From contig QKEW01000008.1 in NCBI GenBank assembly GCA_003251635.1, positions 33,489 through 97,488 of the forward strand: a stretch of DNA of 64,000 nucleotides, written 5' to 3'. Shown piece after piece: positions 35,342-48,559 of the stretch (positions are counted from its first letter, which is position 1; each line of letters starts with the position of its first letter). Both the position numbers and the translations under genes were made by a program. The notes under the pieces were generated by a model, which had not been told where the DNA came from, made no database searches, and saw only the letters and a list, made by a program, of their open reading frames with translations. The DNA is from a bacterium. Its GTDB lineage: Bacteria > Patescibacteriota > Minisyncoccia > Moranbacterales > GWC2-37-73.

Positions 35342-35417
35342 GACAGGGTAGCTCATTGGTAGAGCACGTCCATTTCATACAAGGACGAGGCAGGAGGTTC
35401 AATTCCTTCCCCTGTTA
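35342..35417 (+). tRNA. tRNA with anticodon CAU (Met/Ile2 type) and an atypical enlarged anticodon arm
   Basis: Acceptor GACAGGG/CCCTGTT, D-arm GCTC-ATTGGTA-GAGC, T-arm GGAGG-TTCAATT-CCTTC. There are 11 nt (ATTTCATACAA) between the 5-bp stem halves CGTCC/GGACG. The core loop TTCATAC is closed by an extra T-A pair and an A-A mismatch. Confidence 0.5.
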
Positions 35418-35419
35418 CT

Positions 35420-36517
35420 ATGTCAAAAAGCAATTGGTACAACGATATAGAATCCGAAATTTCCAACTTAACTTCCCTGGGTCTTTTAAAGGCGCTTAAT
35501 AAATTTAAAAGATCAGAAAGAACAATATTAGCCAATCTTTTCATAAAGAAAATAAACCAAAACAAAAATTTCCGTCCTCTGGTTTTCTATGTGGGGTATT
35601 GCCTGGCTAAAGGTCAAAAATTGATCGGCATCGAATTACTGCCGGAAAAAGAAAAACTTCTTATAGGTGATATAACTGCGGCCCTGGAAATTGAAAACAT
35701 TTCAACTTATTATTTTAATCATTACTTAGACAACAAATCCGATATAAAAAATAAACAAAATGAAAAAAATCGCGTTTTAGCCGGAATGTTATGTAGAAAT
35801 ATTCAACAAGAAATAATTGAGGAGTTAGACGTCAATACTCGAATTAAATTTAAAATAACCAAAATTCTCAGACAAATTGATCAAGACATCACAAAAGCCC
35901 AAATTCACGAAATTAACACCGGGATTTTTGAAAATATGGGTGAATTTTCAGATGAAAAAGAGTTTCGGGATGTCTATTTTGAAAGATGTCGAAAAATCAG
36001 CGGACAGTTTTACGGACGCTGCGCTGAAATAGGTTACATAATCGGATCAAATAGCACAGCCAGATCTAAAGATAAACAAATGATAAAAAATTTTTACACC
36101 GAAATGGCCACTTTAGGACAATTTGGAAATGATATTGGAGATTATGCGCTTGCCGATACTCATAGTGGAACGATTGAAAAAAATTTCTACAAAGATTACG
36201 GCAGCGACTTTAAGAATCAGCGCCTAACTTACCCGAATTATTTGTTGCTAAAAAGACTTATTAGCCCAAAAGATGAAGAAATCGTGACTTCAATTTTAAA
36301 AAAAGGATTTACTAAACAAACAATACCTGTTTTTATTAAACTAATGAAAAAATTAGAAATCTTTGATGATTCTTTCTTGCTTCTAAACAATCGCTTCAAT
36401 CAAATCAAAAAAACATTGACGCTACCAAGGTCTGAATTAAGAACACTTGTCTCCAGTTCTGTTATAGTTTTTAGATCCAATAAATTATTAAATTCCGTGA
36501 AAAATTCCCTAAAATAA
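35420..36517 (+). CDS. Isoprenoid (trans-isoprenyl diphosphate/terpene) synthase-fold protein with degenerate Asp-rich motifs
   Basis: RPLVFYVGYCLAKG (FARM-region context), NHYLDNK in place of DDxxD, and GQFGNDIGDYA in place of the second GxxFQxxDDxxD. Its start codon is 3 nt after the tRNA 3' end. Confidence 0.45.
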   Translation: MSKSNWYNDIESEISNLTSLGLLKALNKFKRSERTILANLFIKKINQNKNFRPLVFYVGYCLAKGQKLIGIELLPEKEKLLIGDITAALEIENISTYYFNHYLDNKSDIKNKQNEKNRVLAGMLCRNIQQEIIEELDVNTRIKFKITKILRQIDQDITKAQIHEINTGIFENMGEFSDEKEFRDVYFERCRKISGQFYGRCAEIGYIIGSNSTARSKDKQMIKNFYTEMATLGQFGNDIGDYALADTHSGTIEKNFYKDYGSDFKNQRLTYPNYLLLKRLISPKDEEIVTSILKKGFTKQTIPVFIKLMKKLEIFDDSFLLLNNRFNQIKKTLTLPRSELRTLVSSSVIVFRSNKLLNSVKNSLK

Positions 36518-36538
36518 AAAACTCAAAGTAAAGAATCT

Positions 36539-37318
36539 CTAATTATTGAACTTTGCATTACTCCATGTCAATTCAAACAAGGCTTTCAAGATATTGGACA
36601 GGGCACTGCTTTCTATCAAAATTCCCATGCGATTCGGTTCTTTGAGCAAAGCCATGACAACTTTGTTTTCATAAACATTAATTTCTCCACCAAAAAGCTC
36701 GATTCCTTTAAGCTGCTGTTTTTTTATCCAACGATATTCAGTATATTTGAACGATCCTTGATAGTCTTCAAGCCAACTTCTGGCTATTGGAGTATCTAAA
36801 AGCAATATTCTTTCATGAATTTTATTTTTACTTCGCTCCCTATTGTAACTTCTTGCCCAAGTGCGAAAGTCAGGCACGTCCCAACCCTCCACATCCATAA
36901 TTGATAAAATTTCACTTCTTGATTTGAGGGTTTCTTCAAAAATATTTTTAACTCCTTCGATCCCCTCTTGATATTTAATTGTGGGCTTATCCGCAAATTT
37001 ATAAAGAGAAACAAGATCAGGAAGCTTTTGCTCGACTTTTTCCAATGTTCTCTGCCATTGATTCTTTTTATTTTTTATGTGTTGGATAAGCCTTTGAGGA
37101 TGTTCGGCGCTGAAAACTATCTTAGCTCCCTTGCCAGAAACCTGATCAACTAATCCATACCAGCCCAATTTTTCCAAAACATGATAACCCAATGTTCTTG
37201 TAATGCCCGCCTTTTTGGTAATTTCACTGACAGTTGAAGGACCAAGCTCAAGTAAGGCCAAATACACTTTGGCTTCCGTTTCTTCCAGGCCTAACTCTTG
37301 AATGGTTTTTTCATTCAT
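36539..37318 (-). CDS. TrmB-family transcriptional regulator (paralog 2)
   Basis: MNEKTIQELGLEETEAKVYLALLELGPSTVSEITKKAGITRTLGYHVLEKL. Homologous along its length to the other TrmB paralogs. The start is moved to the Met conserved among the paralogs. Confidence 0.7.
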   Translation of the reverse strand: MNEKTIQELGLEETEAKVYLALLELGPSTVSEITKKAGITRTLGYHVLEKLGWYGLVDQVSGKGAKIVFSAEHPQRLIQHIKNKKNQWQRTLEKVEQKLPDLVSLYKFADKPTIKYQEGIEGVKNIFEETLKSRSEILSIMDVEGWDVPDFRTWARSYNRERSKNKIHERILLLDTPIARSWLEDYQGSFKYTEYRWIKKQQLKGIELFGGEINVYENKVVMALLKEPNRMGILIESSALSNILKALFELTWSNAKFNN

Positions 37319-37519
37319 GCCCACAAAATAACAAATTTCGAGCATTGTGTCAATAATATTTTACATTTTGAACAAATATTTATTATTTTACCTTATTTAA
37401 GATATTTTTTATACTTATTTTGTATTTTCATATTTACTTTATTTTCAATTTAATTAAACTTACTCGTTATGATGAATTATCGTAACCAGCAACTTAACAA
37501 CAAAACGAGGAGGTGTCAG

Positions 37520-46525: not shown

Positions 46526-46706
46526 ACTTATATTGTAGTAGTAGAATTATAGTATTAGTGCTACTTCCTTTCAACTACTTTGATGCTACACCAAAAATCA
46601 AAAATAGTAAACACGAACGGGAGTTATTTTGTGTTGTGTGCGCACGGGTGGGAGGGGCAAACACAACCACCTTTTTCTTGGCGGCGCTTTTCGCAAAGCG
46701 AAAAAC

Positions 46707-46854
46707 GAAATTCGGCGGCGGCGGAAAAATTGGATTCGGAAAGCGAGGGCGGGCAAAAATTCCTTTTCCCAGACCCTTTCCCTTTTTGCCCGCCCGAGCG
46801 GAAAATTAAAAATTCTTTTCAAAAAAAGTTCGAGCTTGAGCGTAAAAACAGCTC
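46707..46854. repeat. Inverted repeat IR1, right copy
   Basis: Reverse complement of 43831..43979 with one mismatch. Confidence 0.85.
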
Positions 46855-46942
46855 CAGACAGAAAATTGCGATTTCGAAAGCGCCAGCGCCCACTCTTTTT
46901 GCGGTTGAAAGCTGGCGTTTTTGTTTTGGAGAGTCCAGTTCA
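46851..46942. repeat. Inverted repeat IR2, left copy (about 91 bp); it abuts IR1-right
   Basis: Its reverse complement is identical to 48463..48553. Contains a CGCCAGC...GCTGGCG stem plus T-run. Confidence 0.85.
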
Positions 46943-47083
46943 TTTGAGCGAAGCTCAAAGTTGAATAAAATTCAACAGCCGATTTTTTGCCTTTTCGCCA
47001 AAGGCGAAAATTCCAAATTTGGAGAATAAAAGAAAGCGCCAATTTTTTGCCCAAAAGCGATTTCAATAATCAAAAAAAACAAT

Positions 47084-48559
47084 ATGAATCAAACCAAAAA
47101 GTTTTTTCTCTATGCCAGAAAATCAACGGATGAAGCGGAAAGGCAAGTTTTGTCCATTGAAGCGCAACTGACCGAAGTTCGGGAATTTGCGCAGAAGGAA
47201 GGAGTTTTCATTGCGCGGGAATTTGTGGAAACAAAGTCCGCCAAAAAGCCAGGGCGGGATGTTTTTGAAAAAATGATTTCTGGCGTTGAGAAAGGCGAAG
47301 CCATGGGAATTTTAGCGTGGCATCCTGATAGATTAGCAAGAAATGCGATTGACGCTGGAAAAATAATAAATTTATTGGATATAGGAAAATTGGAAACGCT
47401 AAAATTCCCGACTTTTTGGTTTGATAAAACTCCACAAGGACTTTTCATGCTCTCTATCGCTTTTGGGCAATCCAAATACTATATTGATAATCTTTCAGAG
47501 AATATCAAACGAGGATTGCGCCAGAAGCTCCGAAATGGCGTCTATCCTGGATTTGCTCCCATTGGATATACAAATGAGCTTCGCAATCATACAATCATCA
47601 AAGACCCCGAGAATTGGCAGCTTGTGGCCAAACTTTTTGAAGAATACGCGACTGGCAAATATACCTTGGAGCAAATCCAAAAATTGGCGCTTTCTTTGGG
47701 CTTGATGAGCCGACGATCAAAAAAGACTTTGTCACTTTCAAGAATCCAAAGAATGTTGAGTAATCCTTTCTATTACGGATTGTTCCAATTCAAAAATGAA
47801 ATTTACGAAGGTAATCACGAGCCAATAATTTCCAAGCAACTTTTTGAAAAAGTGCAACGGATAATGGCGGATCGCGGAAAACCAAGAAAAGAAAAACCAA
47901 ACTATGGCTTTGGATTTCTGGGAATTTTCAAATGCGGAGAATGCGGACGATCCATCACTGCTGAACAGCACATCAAGAAAAGCGGTTTGGTTTTTCGCCA
48001 TTACCGTTGCACCAAAAAGAATGTTGATTGCTCACAAAAATATGTGAGCGAAAAAGACTTGCATTTGCAAATCAATCAGATTTTTCAAAAAGTTGCTTTG
48101 CCTCCTGAATGGCTGTCACCGATTTTAGCTAAACTGGACGAGGAAGAAAAAGAGGTTTCCCAAAAATCCCGCTCTTTCGCCCAAAATATGGAAAAGGAAA
48201 TTTCGGAAATTGAAAACAAAGTTTCACGACTTTTGGATATGCAGTTGGAAAATGAAATAACCCTGGCAGAATACAAAGAGAAAAAAGAAAAACTTCTGAA
48301 TCAAAAAACAGATTTAAAGCAGAAACTTTCGGATTTTGGGCGAAAAGGAAATTATTGGCTCGAACCGATGAGAAATTTCATTTTGTCGGCTCATCAAGCC
48401 AATTCCTTAATACATTCTGAAAATTTGGAAGAGAAGCGAAGCTTCTTGCAAAAAATCGGCTCGAACTGGACTCTCCAAAACAAAAACGCCAGCTTTCAAC
48501 CGCAAAAAGAGTGGGCGCTGGCGCTTTCGAAATCGCAATTTTCTGTCTGGAGCGGGTAA
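47084..48559 (+). CDS. Large serine recombinase (resolvase/invertase catalytic domain, recombinase domain, zinc ribbon)
   Basis: The N-terminal LYARKSTDEAERQVLSIEAQ contains the catalytic Ser. C-terminal CGECGRS...HYRC zinc ribbon and a coiled coil. The last about 30 codons lie inside IR2-right. Confidence 0.8.
   Translation: MNQTKKFFLYARKSTDEAERQVLSIEAQLTEVREFAQKEGVFIAREFVETKSAKKPGRDVFEKMISGVEKGEAMGILAWHPDRLARNAIDAGKIINLLDIGKLETLKFPTFWFDKTPQGLFMLSIAFGQSKYYIDNLSENIKRGLRQKLRNGVYPGFAPIGYTNELRNHTIIKDPENWQLVAKLFEEYATGKYTLEQIQKLALSLGLMSRRSKKTLSLSRIQRMLSNPFYYGLFQFKNEIYEGNHEPIISKQLFEKVQRIMADRGKPRKEKPNYGFGFLGIFKCGECGRSITAEQHIKKSGLVFRHYRCTKKNVDCSQKYVSEKDLHLQINQIFQKVALPPEWLSPILAKLDEEEKEVSQKSRSFAQNMEKEISEIENKVSRLLDMQLENEITLAEYKEKKEKLLNQKTDLKQKLSDFGRKGNYWLEPMRNFILSAHQANSLIHSENLEEKRSFLQKIGSNWTLQNKNASFQPQKEWALALSKSQFSVWSG
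48463..48553. repeat. Inverted repeat IR2, right copy; it ends at the 3' end of tRNA-Gly
   Basis: Reverse complement of 46851..46942 (perfect). Confidence 0.85.

Follow-up and report, generated by a model that had tools for sequence, protein, structure and literature searches.

Large serine recombinases (LSRs) catalyze recombination between attP and attB, and recombination between attL and attR needs a directionality factor. The integrases of A118/LI, Bxb1, phiC31, and TP901-1 as well as XisF, SpoIVCA, and Ccr have a common domain set, including a zinc ribbon with an inserted coiled coil, a tiny crossover core, a pseudo-palindromic attP, and a half-site motif that lies 5 bp nearer to the core in attB. 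The LSR described here has the same properties and is encoded in a 64,000-nt window of the metagenome-derived contig QKEW01000008.1 (assembly GCA_003251635.1) from a candidate phyla radiation (CPR) genome (Patescibacteria, Parcubacteria-like); all coordinates are positions in this window. It is remote from the named enzymes, e.g., from the A118 integrase (E = 4e-6 over ~100 residues) and XisF (99 bits versus a cutoff of 375). Unlike them, its family always has the 3' end of a tRNA gene as its target, an open reading frame (ORF) that crosses attP and loses its tail on integration, and an inverted full attP upstream of the gene, and no conserved directionality-factor candidate was found in the variable cargo of the compared elements. 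Our comparisons show the stretch from 43831 to 48553 (4.7 kb) to be an intact, LSR-driven integrative element next to a tRNA-Gly gene and the sole mobile unit of its island that can be demonstrated from the sequence.

Several traits of this element recall other described systems. A serine recombinase gene within inverted repeats, whose inversion would change the C terminus of the protein, resembles Hin, Gin, Cin, and Min and the intragenic invertons, but the classic invertases are small serine recombinases (~190 amino acids [aa], C-terminal helix-turn-helix) that use 26-bp sites and an enhancer, whereas the window has a 491-aa LSR, repeats of 91 to 150 nt that represent attP halves, and an integrative element, whose inversion was not directly observed. 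As in the SSV1-type integrase partition and the integration-dependent immunity of mycobacteriophages, integration cuts a reading frame, and integrated and free forms encode different proteins. In those systems, attP lies in a gene, the integrases are tyrosine recombinases, and a spare inverted 3' end is not known; the window element, in contrast, would lose a tail of 14 to 25 residues only. By analogy alone, the presumed circle with two inverted sites, two invertible arcs, and exchangeable cargo can be compared with the 2-micron FLP/FRT system and with cassette exchange; FLP is a tyrosine recombinase, whereas the window element depends on a serine recombinase, and neither a replication function nor evidence of amplification was found for it. 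Tycheposons of Prochlorococcus are small cargo elements at tRNA genes, where newcomers push older elements into the island and remnants are left; they have tyrosine integrases in 910 of 937 cases and are separated by partial tRNA copies (bioRxiv 10.1101/2020.12.28.424599). The tRNA-anchored cargo elements, the repeated integration, and the remnants in the island are similar at the present locus, but the window element has an LSR, a shared core of 4 nt, remnants in the form of one attP half-site (P'), and the inverted attP copy.

The borders of the element are apparent from junction alignments. At the right end, the P arm runs through the core GAGC into the 3' end of tRNA-Gly(GCC) (attR, ...TTTTCTGTCTG GAGC GGGTAAGCAGAATCGAAC...), and at the left end, flanking DNA is joined through GAGC to the P' arm (attL, ...ATGACACTGT GAGC TGTTTTTACGCTCAAGCTCGAAC...). 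Joining P from the right end and P' from the left end via GAGC therefore rebuilds attP, and a segment named S is its inverted copy, the reverse complement of which reads ...TTTTCTGTCTG GAGC TGTTTTTACGCTCAAGCTCGAAC.... Only GAGC is common to all three junctions, and the alignments show that the crossover took place within this 4-nt core at the discriminator/CCA position of tRNA-Gly, with the CCA supplied by the element. Direct repeats of tRNA ends at module borders, which a preliminary description of the region had proposed to look for, were not present; neither was a repeat of the tRNA 3' end found at the far border of the element, where just GAGC is shared. Such a tiny core is expected for a serine recombinase, and tRNA repeats are typical of tyrosine-integrase islands. 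A decayed tRNA-Gly-like fragment at ~43783 to 43800 matched in 14 of 17 positions by eye and was not recovered by local alignment.

The inverted repeats of the region comprise pair A (43831 to 43980 with 46705 to 46854; 150 nt, 99% identity) and pair B (46851 to 46941 with 48463 to 48553; 91 nt, 100% identity), the inner arms of which abut with a 4-nt overlap. Together, these inner arms form S (46705 to 46941, 237 nt), the exact reverse complement of positions 48463 to 48553 followed by 43831 to 43980. This composition shows that the "inverted repeat system" of the preliminary description is the element's own inverted attP copy just upstream of the LSR gene. The near-perfect inverted repeats bound two unique arcs, i.e., a cargo arc of 2.7 kb and an LSR arc of 1.5 kb. 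The window is matched with 100% identity by Logan unitigs that were built independently from run SRR7216773; one of them ends 30 nt inside arm A, and another one covers the cargo and is bounded on either side by the single A/A' mismatch. The repeats are not an assembly artifact, as a true repeat in the k-mer graph results in unitig breaks of this kind.

The XRE regulator and the HExxH protein reported previously are encoded together with two membrane-like proteins in the cargo operon. No family matches were obtained for the HExxH protein and the membrane-like proteins of 220 and 142 aa, and no homologues were detected in 90 related loci. Relaxases, coupling proteins, and type IV secretion were without Pfam, NCBIfam, or PHROG matches among the scanned proteins, not every ORF having been run against every library. 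Two overlapping promoter-like sites are located between the XRE gene and S, i.e., TTGACA-17-TAGAAT on the plus strand (46519 to 46547), which lies in the cargo arc and is directed toward S and the LSR gene, and TTGAAA-17-TATAAT on the minus strand, which is directed toward the XRE gene. The pair resembles a divergent control region of a repressor and a recombinase.

The recombinase is assigned to the large serine recombinases by its domains, its catalytic motif, and its site logic. It matches PF00239 (Resolvase, 76.7 bits), PF07508 (Recombinase, 56.6 bits), PF13408 (Zn_ribbon_recom, 30.5 bits), and PHROG 95 (integrase), and the R-x-S nucleophile motif (Y10 A11 R12 K13 S14 T15) as well as the four zinc-ribbon cysteines are invariant in a comparison of 26 homologues; an exact look-up of the 491-aa protein retrieved no record. 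In this family, the LSR frame continues through attP into a conserved tail and ends 14 to 25 residues past the core. P' accordingly encodes C-(L/F)-(L/Y)-(D/N)-x-(V/I/A)-R-T-(F/Y)-F-(E/K)-(Q/E)-N-P... in the LSR frame, and the tail peptide is encoded by the S copy in 57 of 67 loci. The full-length form of the window LSR would comprise 504 aa (...SVWSCFYAQARTFFEKNF), and the integrated gene encodes 491 aa (...SVWSG). The junctions show that integration swaps the tail CFYAQARTFFEKNF for a glycine and a stop codon, which would truncate the enzyme. Pairwise differences in the tail at codon positions 1, 2, and 3 amount to 8286, 5250, and 9388, respectively, which is coding-like, and the codon usage is varied, with CGA or AGA for arginine and all four codons for proline. 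In other loci, the integrated LSR reads arbitrarily into the antisense tRNA ("RESNP," "RDSNPR"), which explains the length scatter of LSRs in the databases (484 to 557 residues), where only three proteins carry the tail. For annotation, the repeats also explain why LSR genes are often found at contig ends and why their predicted C termini vary.

More than 7,000 LSR homologues of this length range were retrieved by a protein search from Parcubacteria, Patescibacteria, Berkelbacteria, Gracilibacteria, Peregrinibacteria, and similar lineages, many of them on contigs of 1.6 to 3 kb, and a single metagenome scan contained at least 574 confirmed loci. Each locus of a set of 84, to which a profile scan of metagenome contigs contributed 80 loci with 48 to 91% identity, was compared with itself. 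Pair B is present in 75 of the 84 loci and in 65 of the 67 that extend 300 nt or more upstream of the LSR gene, and its outer boundary is located at invariant KIGS(N) codons in most loci. Pair A was found in at least 31 loci, whereas about a dozen loci have none within 8 kb; some family members may lack a cargo arc or an attL within this distance. An antisense tRNA gene (Gly, Gln, Asn, Ser, Ala, Val, Trp, Pro, or Ile) adjoins the 3' end of the LSR gene in 52 of the 84 loci, and the contig ends at this position in another 17. Three close homologues from JGI and ENA assemblies (84 to 90% identity) adjoin tRNA-Gly(TCC) and exhibit the same repeat pairs. Among the loci with LSRs at tRNA-Gly(TCC), which are 84 to 91% identical, L003 and L005 have both pairs and a different cargo, and L004 exhibits just pair B, its contig beginning within the element.

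The P arm ends in every locus with TGG plus the discriminator and the first acceptor bases of the target tRNA, and the reverse complement of S always runs on into the conserved P' arm. The distance between the core and a (C/T)xGAAC motif is 17 nt in P' and 12 nt in the T-arm of the tRNA, and this 5-nt difference is present in 29 of 31 loci. A motif bound by the zinc-ribbon domain has been reported to be shifted by 5 bp between LSR attP and attB half-sites (Rutherford et al., PMC3783163). The shift therefore supports the view that attP is composed of the half-sites P and P' and that the tRNA provides a half-site of attB.

The arms of one element have a median identity of 98.7%, and the B arms of different elements with 84 to 88% identical LSRs are 72 to 79% identical (59 to 79% across all elements compared). 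This pattern shows apparent signs of concerted evolution and ongoing exchange. Between pairs of elements, only the S-LSR-P segment (~2.1 kb, 87 to 93% identity) and the A arm (95 to 97%) are alike, and cargo and flanks are unrelated. In L008, L040, L054, L080, and L095, the LSR gene continues in situ into a P' arm and is full length. In L008 and L054, this arm stems from a second, different element, and the resulting hybrid P1-core-P'2 junctions are as expected from a tandem insertion. A degenerate tRNA-Ser-like fragment followed by tRNA-Asn lies directly upstream of the LSR gene and on the same strand in L033, an arrangement compatible with an LSR in the opposite orientation, although its far end is cut off, as the contig stops within the repeat. 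These alternative arrangements were found across different loci and never for one and the same element. In L035 (7706 to 9530), an LSR pseudogene is flanked by a pair of inverted tRNA-Gln genes (CTG and TTG). A P arm adjoins each of these genes, and neither side has a P'. Such a structure would be expected to result from a recombination of S with a second tRNA-Gln attB and an inversion of the intervening chromosome segment. A block of genes for HU, RNase Y, and iPGM is found to the left of the LSR element in L003, where an inverted tRNA-Gly(CCC) is also located nearby, and to the right of tRNA-Gly and tRNA-Pro in L004 and L005, which suggests a larger inversion including the element and its target tRNAs.

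The genomic context was assessed with the nearest syntenic relatives L089, L090, and L091, which were found via RluD in groundwater samples (protein identities of 64% for RluD, 88% for GyrA, and 82% for S1). On the right side, the gene order FtsH-TilS-Gmk-S1-...-GyrA-...-tRNA-Leu(TAG)-RluD-L19 followed by the tRNA genes Leu(GAG)-Val-Phe-Met-Gly(GCC) is kept in the relatives, and on the left side, L091 retains the gene of a 3D-domain protein (31545 to 32102 in the window, 76% identity), tRNA-Leu(TAA), tRNA-Cys, UDG, a metallophosphatase, and an AP endonuclease. The interval that separates the 3D-domain gene from tRNA-Gly measures 16.4 kb in the window and is taken up in L091 by 2.4 kb of unrelated DNA, which encodes DUF2975, an XRE regulator, and two small ORFs without a counterpart in the window. 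L089 and L091 have identical RluD proteins, yet they diverge exactly past the GCTC core of tRNA-Gly; L089, in which GCTC is followed by AAAAATC and then a terminator, resembles an unoccupied site. The LSR is absent from the orthologous tRNA-Gly(GCC) of both strains' contigs, and the presence/absence polymorphism that had been proposed as a check was thus found. The composition is atypical as well, with a GC content of 0.356 for 32103 to 48553 versus ~0.39 in the flanks and a tetranucleotide distance to the flanks of 0.188 versus a maximum of 0.074 for flank chunks of equal size; every subsegment from 35.3 kb rightward is above its own null range, and the stretch from 32.1 to 35.3 kb is borderline.

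The interval from 32.1 to 48.55 kb is therefore a real accessory island that is anchored at tRNA-Gly only and has tRNA-Met as an internal gene. The preliminary description had correctly recognized the accessory nature of the region and a recombinase-associated boundary at tRNA-Gly, where attR ends at 48553 and the final 12 nt of the LSR gene lie inside the tRNA gene. Its left edge at tRNA-Met and its single island between two tRNA genes are not supported, since the variable interval extends to ~32.1 kb and neither an att-like junction nor a tRNA repeat was found at 35342; a search for att junctions at this position, at 36518 to 36538, and at 34290 to 34366 was negative. The tRNA gene itself exists on the plus strand, at a distance of 1 nt and not 3 nt from the downstream ORF, whose supposed relationship to isoprenoid synthases is based on a polyprenyl-synthase match below the cutoff and was not accompanied by PHROG or NCBIfam matches. 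Partial copies of the tRNA-Gly 3' end are found 70 to 170 nt downstream of the intact tRNA-Gly(GCC) in L091 (~2385 to 2402, inverted) and L089 (~12385 to 12400, direct), and a relic P' site is located ~820 nt from tRNA-Gly in L089; the tRNA-Gly hotspot consequently has a history in the relatives, too.

The TrmB-type regulator cassettes and the PhzF gene of the earlier description are also present, and their borders coincide with three relics of P' half-sites. All three relics are oriented on the plus strand like arm A, and each of them is located just before the 3' end of a minus-strand gene (TrmB, TrmB, and PhzF). They were found by DNA homology and not by a protein-motif scan, which detected no further P' relics beyond A and S at useful thresholds, neither in the window nor in a TrmB cassette at 52.45 to 55.07 kb. 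A search of the window for GAGC-N14-19-YTMGRACT gave three matches (at 38971, in A, and in S), with 0.16 expected. The relics at ~40392 and 42640 align with the one at 38971, with sites upstream of the L005 element, and with a site beside the tRNA-Gly of L089, and in frame, the relics encode the variant tail C-L-V-N/H-T/A-V-R-T-G-F-M-E. Another match, to "TAGTTAATAC" at 18049, was rejected as a chance match inside a coding region. TrmB regulators, of which the flagged region contains three and the window further copies at 34367 to 35146 and 52500 to 53249, are also found as cargo next to S in L003, L008, and L095. The terminator hairpin of cassette C0 is 94% identical to that of C1, and no relic site was found at the left edge of C0. 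With respect to PhzF, the closest genomic homologue (L006) is not syntenic, and a PhzF-based scan of reference genomes retrieved only a nonsyntenic Patescibacteria genome and a Clostridium match. Altogether, the three decayed P' half-sites, which would mark earlier insertions, support a serial accretion of the stretch from 38.97 to 48.55 kb, and the composite of serially integrated elements proposed previously is retained for this part of the island only.

A GC-rich hairpin of ~40 nt (CCCCGTAG...CGGGG type) occurs three times in the window, twice inside relic P' half-sites (~40410 to 40445 and ~42658 to 42697) and once upstream of tRNA-Val (~49912 to 49950), and may be a small mobile repeat of the hairpin type. 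Relative to L089, the window has a second insertion, which is located at 52450 to 55072 between the gene of a 101-aa protein (52144 to 52449) and GyrA. It contains a close paralogue (52500 to 53249) of the TrmB gene at 40489 to 41244 and three small plus-strand ORFs, has a low GC content, and is laid out like the island cassettes; no P' relic was found in it.

The five-tRNA cluster to the right of the LSR gene, as previously proposed, consists of Gly, Met, Phe, Val(TAC), and Leu(GAG). ARAGORN reported only Gly, Val, and Leu, since tRNA-Met(CAU) and tRNA-Phe(GAA) each contain a group I intron (48762 to 48977 and 49470 to 49710, minus strand, Rfam) that interrupts the anticodon loop; half-tRNAs are visible beside both introns, and intron-less orthologues of the two split genes are found at exactly these positions in L089 and L091. 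Group I introns in tRNA genes of Patescibacteria have been described before (PMC13011429). A stretch of ~80 nt between tRNA-Leu(TAG) and the start of RluD, which abut in the relatives, resembles the 3' part of this tRNA (51812 to 51900), and the 5' end of tRNA-Val is duplicated 106 nt upstream of the gene (49945 to 49976). These partial tRNA duplications may be footprints of other integrations.

Table 1. Features of the accessory island, the LSR element, and the adjacent tRNA cluster (positions in the 64,000-nt window)
Feature	Position	Strand	Details	Basis or remark
Variable (accessory) interval	32103-48553	.	From 3D-domain gene to tRNA-Gly(GCC)	L091 synteny; GC; tetranucleotide distance
tRNA-Met(CAT)	35342-35418	+	Inside variable interval, not an att site	ARAGORN, Rfam
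365-aa ORF	35420-36517	+	Weak polyprenyl-synthase-like match	PF00348, 22.9 bits (cutoff 27)
Cassette C0	36539-38970		TrmB 36539-37345 (-), four small ORFs (+), terminator hairpin 38937-38969	Pfam
Relic P' half-site 1	38971-39002	+	GAGC core, TTAGAACT 17 nt away	Pattern search, alignment
Cassette C1	39001-40391		TrmB-like 39001-39687 (-), two small ORFs (+), terminator hairpin 40355-40387	
Relic P' half-site 2	40392-40467	+	~41-nt hairpin insertion	DNA alignment
Cassette C2	40489-42639		TrmB 40489-41244 (-), 183-aa and 89-aa ORFs (+)	
Relic P' half-site 3	42640-42720	+	GAGC core, ~41-nt hairpin insertion	DNA alignment
Cassette C3	42732-43577	-	PhzF-family isomerase	PF02567, 232 bits; TIGR00654
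attL	43831-43980	+	Core GAGC 43831-43834 and P' arm (left arm of pair A), tail CFYAQARTFFEKNF in LSR frame	
Cargo operon	44019-46525	-	XRE, HExxH, two membrane-like proteins	
Membrane-like protein	44019-44447	-	142 aa	
Membrane-like protein	44503-45165	-	220 aa	
HExxH protein	45191-46315	-	374 aa	
XRE regulator	46328-46525	-		Pfam HTH_3
Face-to-face promoter-like sites	46519-46574	+ and -	11/12 each	Consensus scan only
S, inverted full attP copy	46705-46941	-	A' arm 46705-46854, core GCTC 46851-46854, B arm 46851-46941	
LSR, integrated form	47084-48559	+	491 aa, ...SVWSG-stop	Pfam, PHROG 95
attR	48463-48553	+	P arm (right arm of pair B, encodes last ~30 LSR residues), core GAGC 48550-48553	
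tRNA-Gly(GCC)	48548-48622	-	B' half of attB, CCA end from element	ARAGORN, junction alignments
tRNA-Met(CAU)	48702-49401	-	Split by group I intron	RF00028, 83.6 bits
HNH-endonuclease ORF	48996-49361	+	In Met intron region, opposite strand to tRNA	Pfam, PHROG
tRNA-Phe(GAA)	49418-49732	-	Split by group I intron	RF00028, 86.9 bits
tRNA-Val(TAC)	49776-49851	-	Conserved core cluster	ARAGORN
tRNA-Leu(GAG)	50127-50211	-	Conserved core cluster	ARAGORN

The explanation that we regard as probable combines a hotspot for insertions at the tRNA-Gly 3' end, an LSR element that carries an inverted attP copy, accretion of successive elements, and an inversion switch. The free form would be a 4.7-kb circle in which two inverted attP sites separate the cargo arc from the LSR arc, and either site could recombine with the tRNA, whose empty site would read ...CACTGTGAGCGGGTAAGC.... 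Such a predicted circle reproduces the observed site composition. A fusion of two circles, an antiparallel integration, and an integration into attR or attL were also considered for the origin of S and rejected, because they fail to reproduce this composition. Integration via the attP next to the 3' end of the LSR gene would truncate the enzyme and result in the arrangement seen in most loci. If the LSR arc were inverted between the 91-nt repeats, whether through homologous recombination or through the action of the LSR, the gene would be reunited with the tail in S and again encode the full-length protein, which would provide a built-in switch of the recombinase form and hence of the mobility state. 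The orientation of the arc could also alter LSR transcription, as the promoter-like site at 46519 to 46547 points through S. Repeated arrivals beside the tRNA would push older elements outward, which would then lose their recombinase modules and leave the TrmB and PhzF cassettes behind. We infer the role of the spare attP from the layout.

This explanation had to be weighed against several others, one of which attributes the repeats to mis-joined metagenome reads, such as fold-back chimeras or a mixture of integrated and circular forms. The window is indeed derived from a metagenome, perfect inverted repeats can originate from chimeric assembly, and the orientation of the arcs cannot be verified, but the independent unitigs, which stop 30 nt into the repeats and include the A/A' difference to the left and right of the cargo, together with the same architecture with element-specific arms in dozens of JGI, ENA, and NCBI assemblies from different assemblers, make an artifact extremely improbable. 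A degraded prophage or integrative and conjugative element with the LSR as its integrase, to which the PHROG 95 match and the divergently adjacent XRE regulator would be well suited, is highly improbable, considering that Pfam, NCBIfam, and PHROG scans detected no structural, lysis, replication, relaxase, or conjugation genes and that the integrase and the XRE regulator are the only PHROG matches; moreover, intact relatives have a size of only ~3 to 6 kb, and a scan of 2.9 million viral contigs with the LSR profile retrieved a single short contig with a relative. It is likewise very unlikely that one composite element reaches from a left att site at tRNA-Met to tRNA-Gly (35342 to 48553). The tRNA genes at both proposed edges, the recombinase at the right one, and the atypical composition from 35.3 to 48.55 kb would be in agreement with it, but the variability relative to L091 does not stop at tRNA-Met, a repeat of this tRNA or an att half-site is missing at 35.3 kb, the LSR has its own attL at 43831, and the internal P' relics split the region into cassettes.

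Two further alternatives concern the inverted attP copy itself. A domesticated LSR that flips its own gene and cargo like Hin, Gin, or a shufflon, exclusively for phase variation, would account for the inverted repeats that flank the LSR in nearly all sufficiently long loci and are kept ~99% identical, for the loci (about half) without an A partner within 8 kb, and for the change of the LSR C terminus on inversion. We nevertheless consider a purely resident switch rather unlikely in view of the attP/attB half-site logic with its 5-bp motif shift, the location of related LSRs, with unrelated cargo and flanks, beside tRNAs for nine amino acids and beside more than one tRNA-Gly isoacceptor, the absence of the element from the orthologous sites of L089 and L091, and the hybrid P1-core-P'2 junctions, which indicate insertions; inversion as such is no exclusive property of this alternative, being part of the explanation preferred here. 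Unlikely, too, is a role of the spare attP without any rearrangement, be it as an operator for autoregulation of the LSR or as a B leader that pairs over 91 nt with the B' 3' coding end and limits expression. S does lie between a promoter-like site (11/12) and the LSR start, and B and B' would both be part of one transcript, but ~50 bp would suffice for an operator, and the near-identity extends over 237 nt up to the KIGS codons, the near-perfect identity instead of a G-U-tolerant complementarity points to homogenization at the DNA level, neither version requires the tail coding that is kept in most S copies, and the A/A' pair is left unexplained.

Several observations weigh against the preferred explanation of an insertion hotspot with an inverting LSR element. 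A partner of the A arm is missing from about half of those loci whose upstream sequence reaches 3 kb or more, the nearest syntenic relative is distant (RluD 64%, GyrA 88%), and an exact search for the predicted empty site GACACTGTGAGCGGGTAAGCAGAATC had no match in metagenome or genome contigs. No contig with a terminal overlap that would prove a circle and no circular form of the window element were found, nor was its alternative orientation seen, and unitigs cannot resolve the orientation of the arcs. To our knowledge, attL and attR do not serve as partners of attP for canonical LSRs, and an LSR-driven inversion is unproven. The codon-position signal of the tail is moderate, and the same bases also serve as a DNA-binding half-site. 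Finally, the sequences to the left of the relic cores are terminator hairpins and not P-like, the clean loss of S-LSR-P is unexplained, and no relic marks the stretch from 32.1 to 38.97 kb.

As an island, the locus is ordinary, and the architecture of the element is the part worth following up. A more far-reaching proposal, which we put forward only tentatively and regard as doubtful in its entirety, is that of a very large family of small integrative CPR elements with tRNA 3' ends as LSR targets whose recombinase gene is split by its own att site and accompanied by a spare inverted attP, so that inversion switches between the truncated and the full-length LSR. Rearrangement instead of a directionality factor would then control directionality or activity, the arcs would be exchangeable, and islands would grow. 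We did not find in the searched literature any account of LSR elements that carry a spare attP in inverted orientation, nor of the present family in CPR bacteria; this absence is no proof of novelty. The loci offer attP/attB pairs for many specificities (tRNA-Gly, -Gln, -Asn, -Ser, -Ala, -Val, -Trp, -Pro, and -Ile), which is of interest for genome engineering. Mobile DNA is poorly described in bacteria of the CPR, and the family would account for hypervariable regions adjacent to tRNA genes in their reduced genomes. The frame-cutting attP, the tail lost on integration, and the conserved inverted spare attP together suggest a self-contained control of the integration state. If this is true, the inverted attP pair would allow the exchange of cargo arcs and drive the growth of islands in genomes with few known mobile elements.

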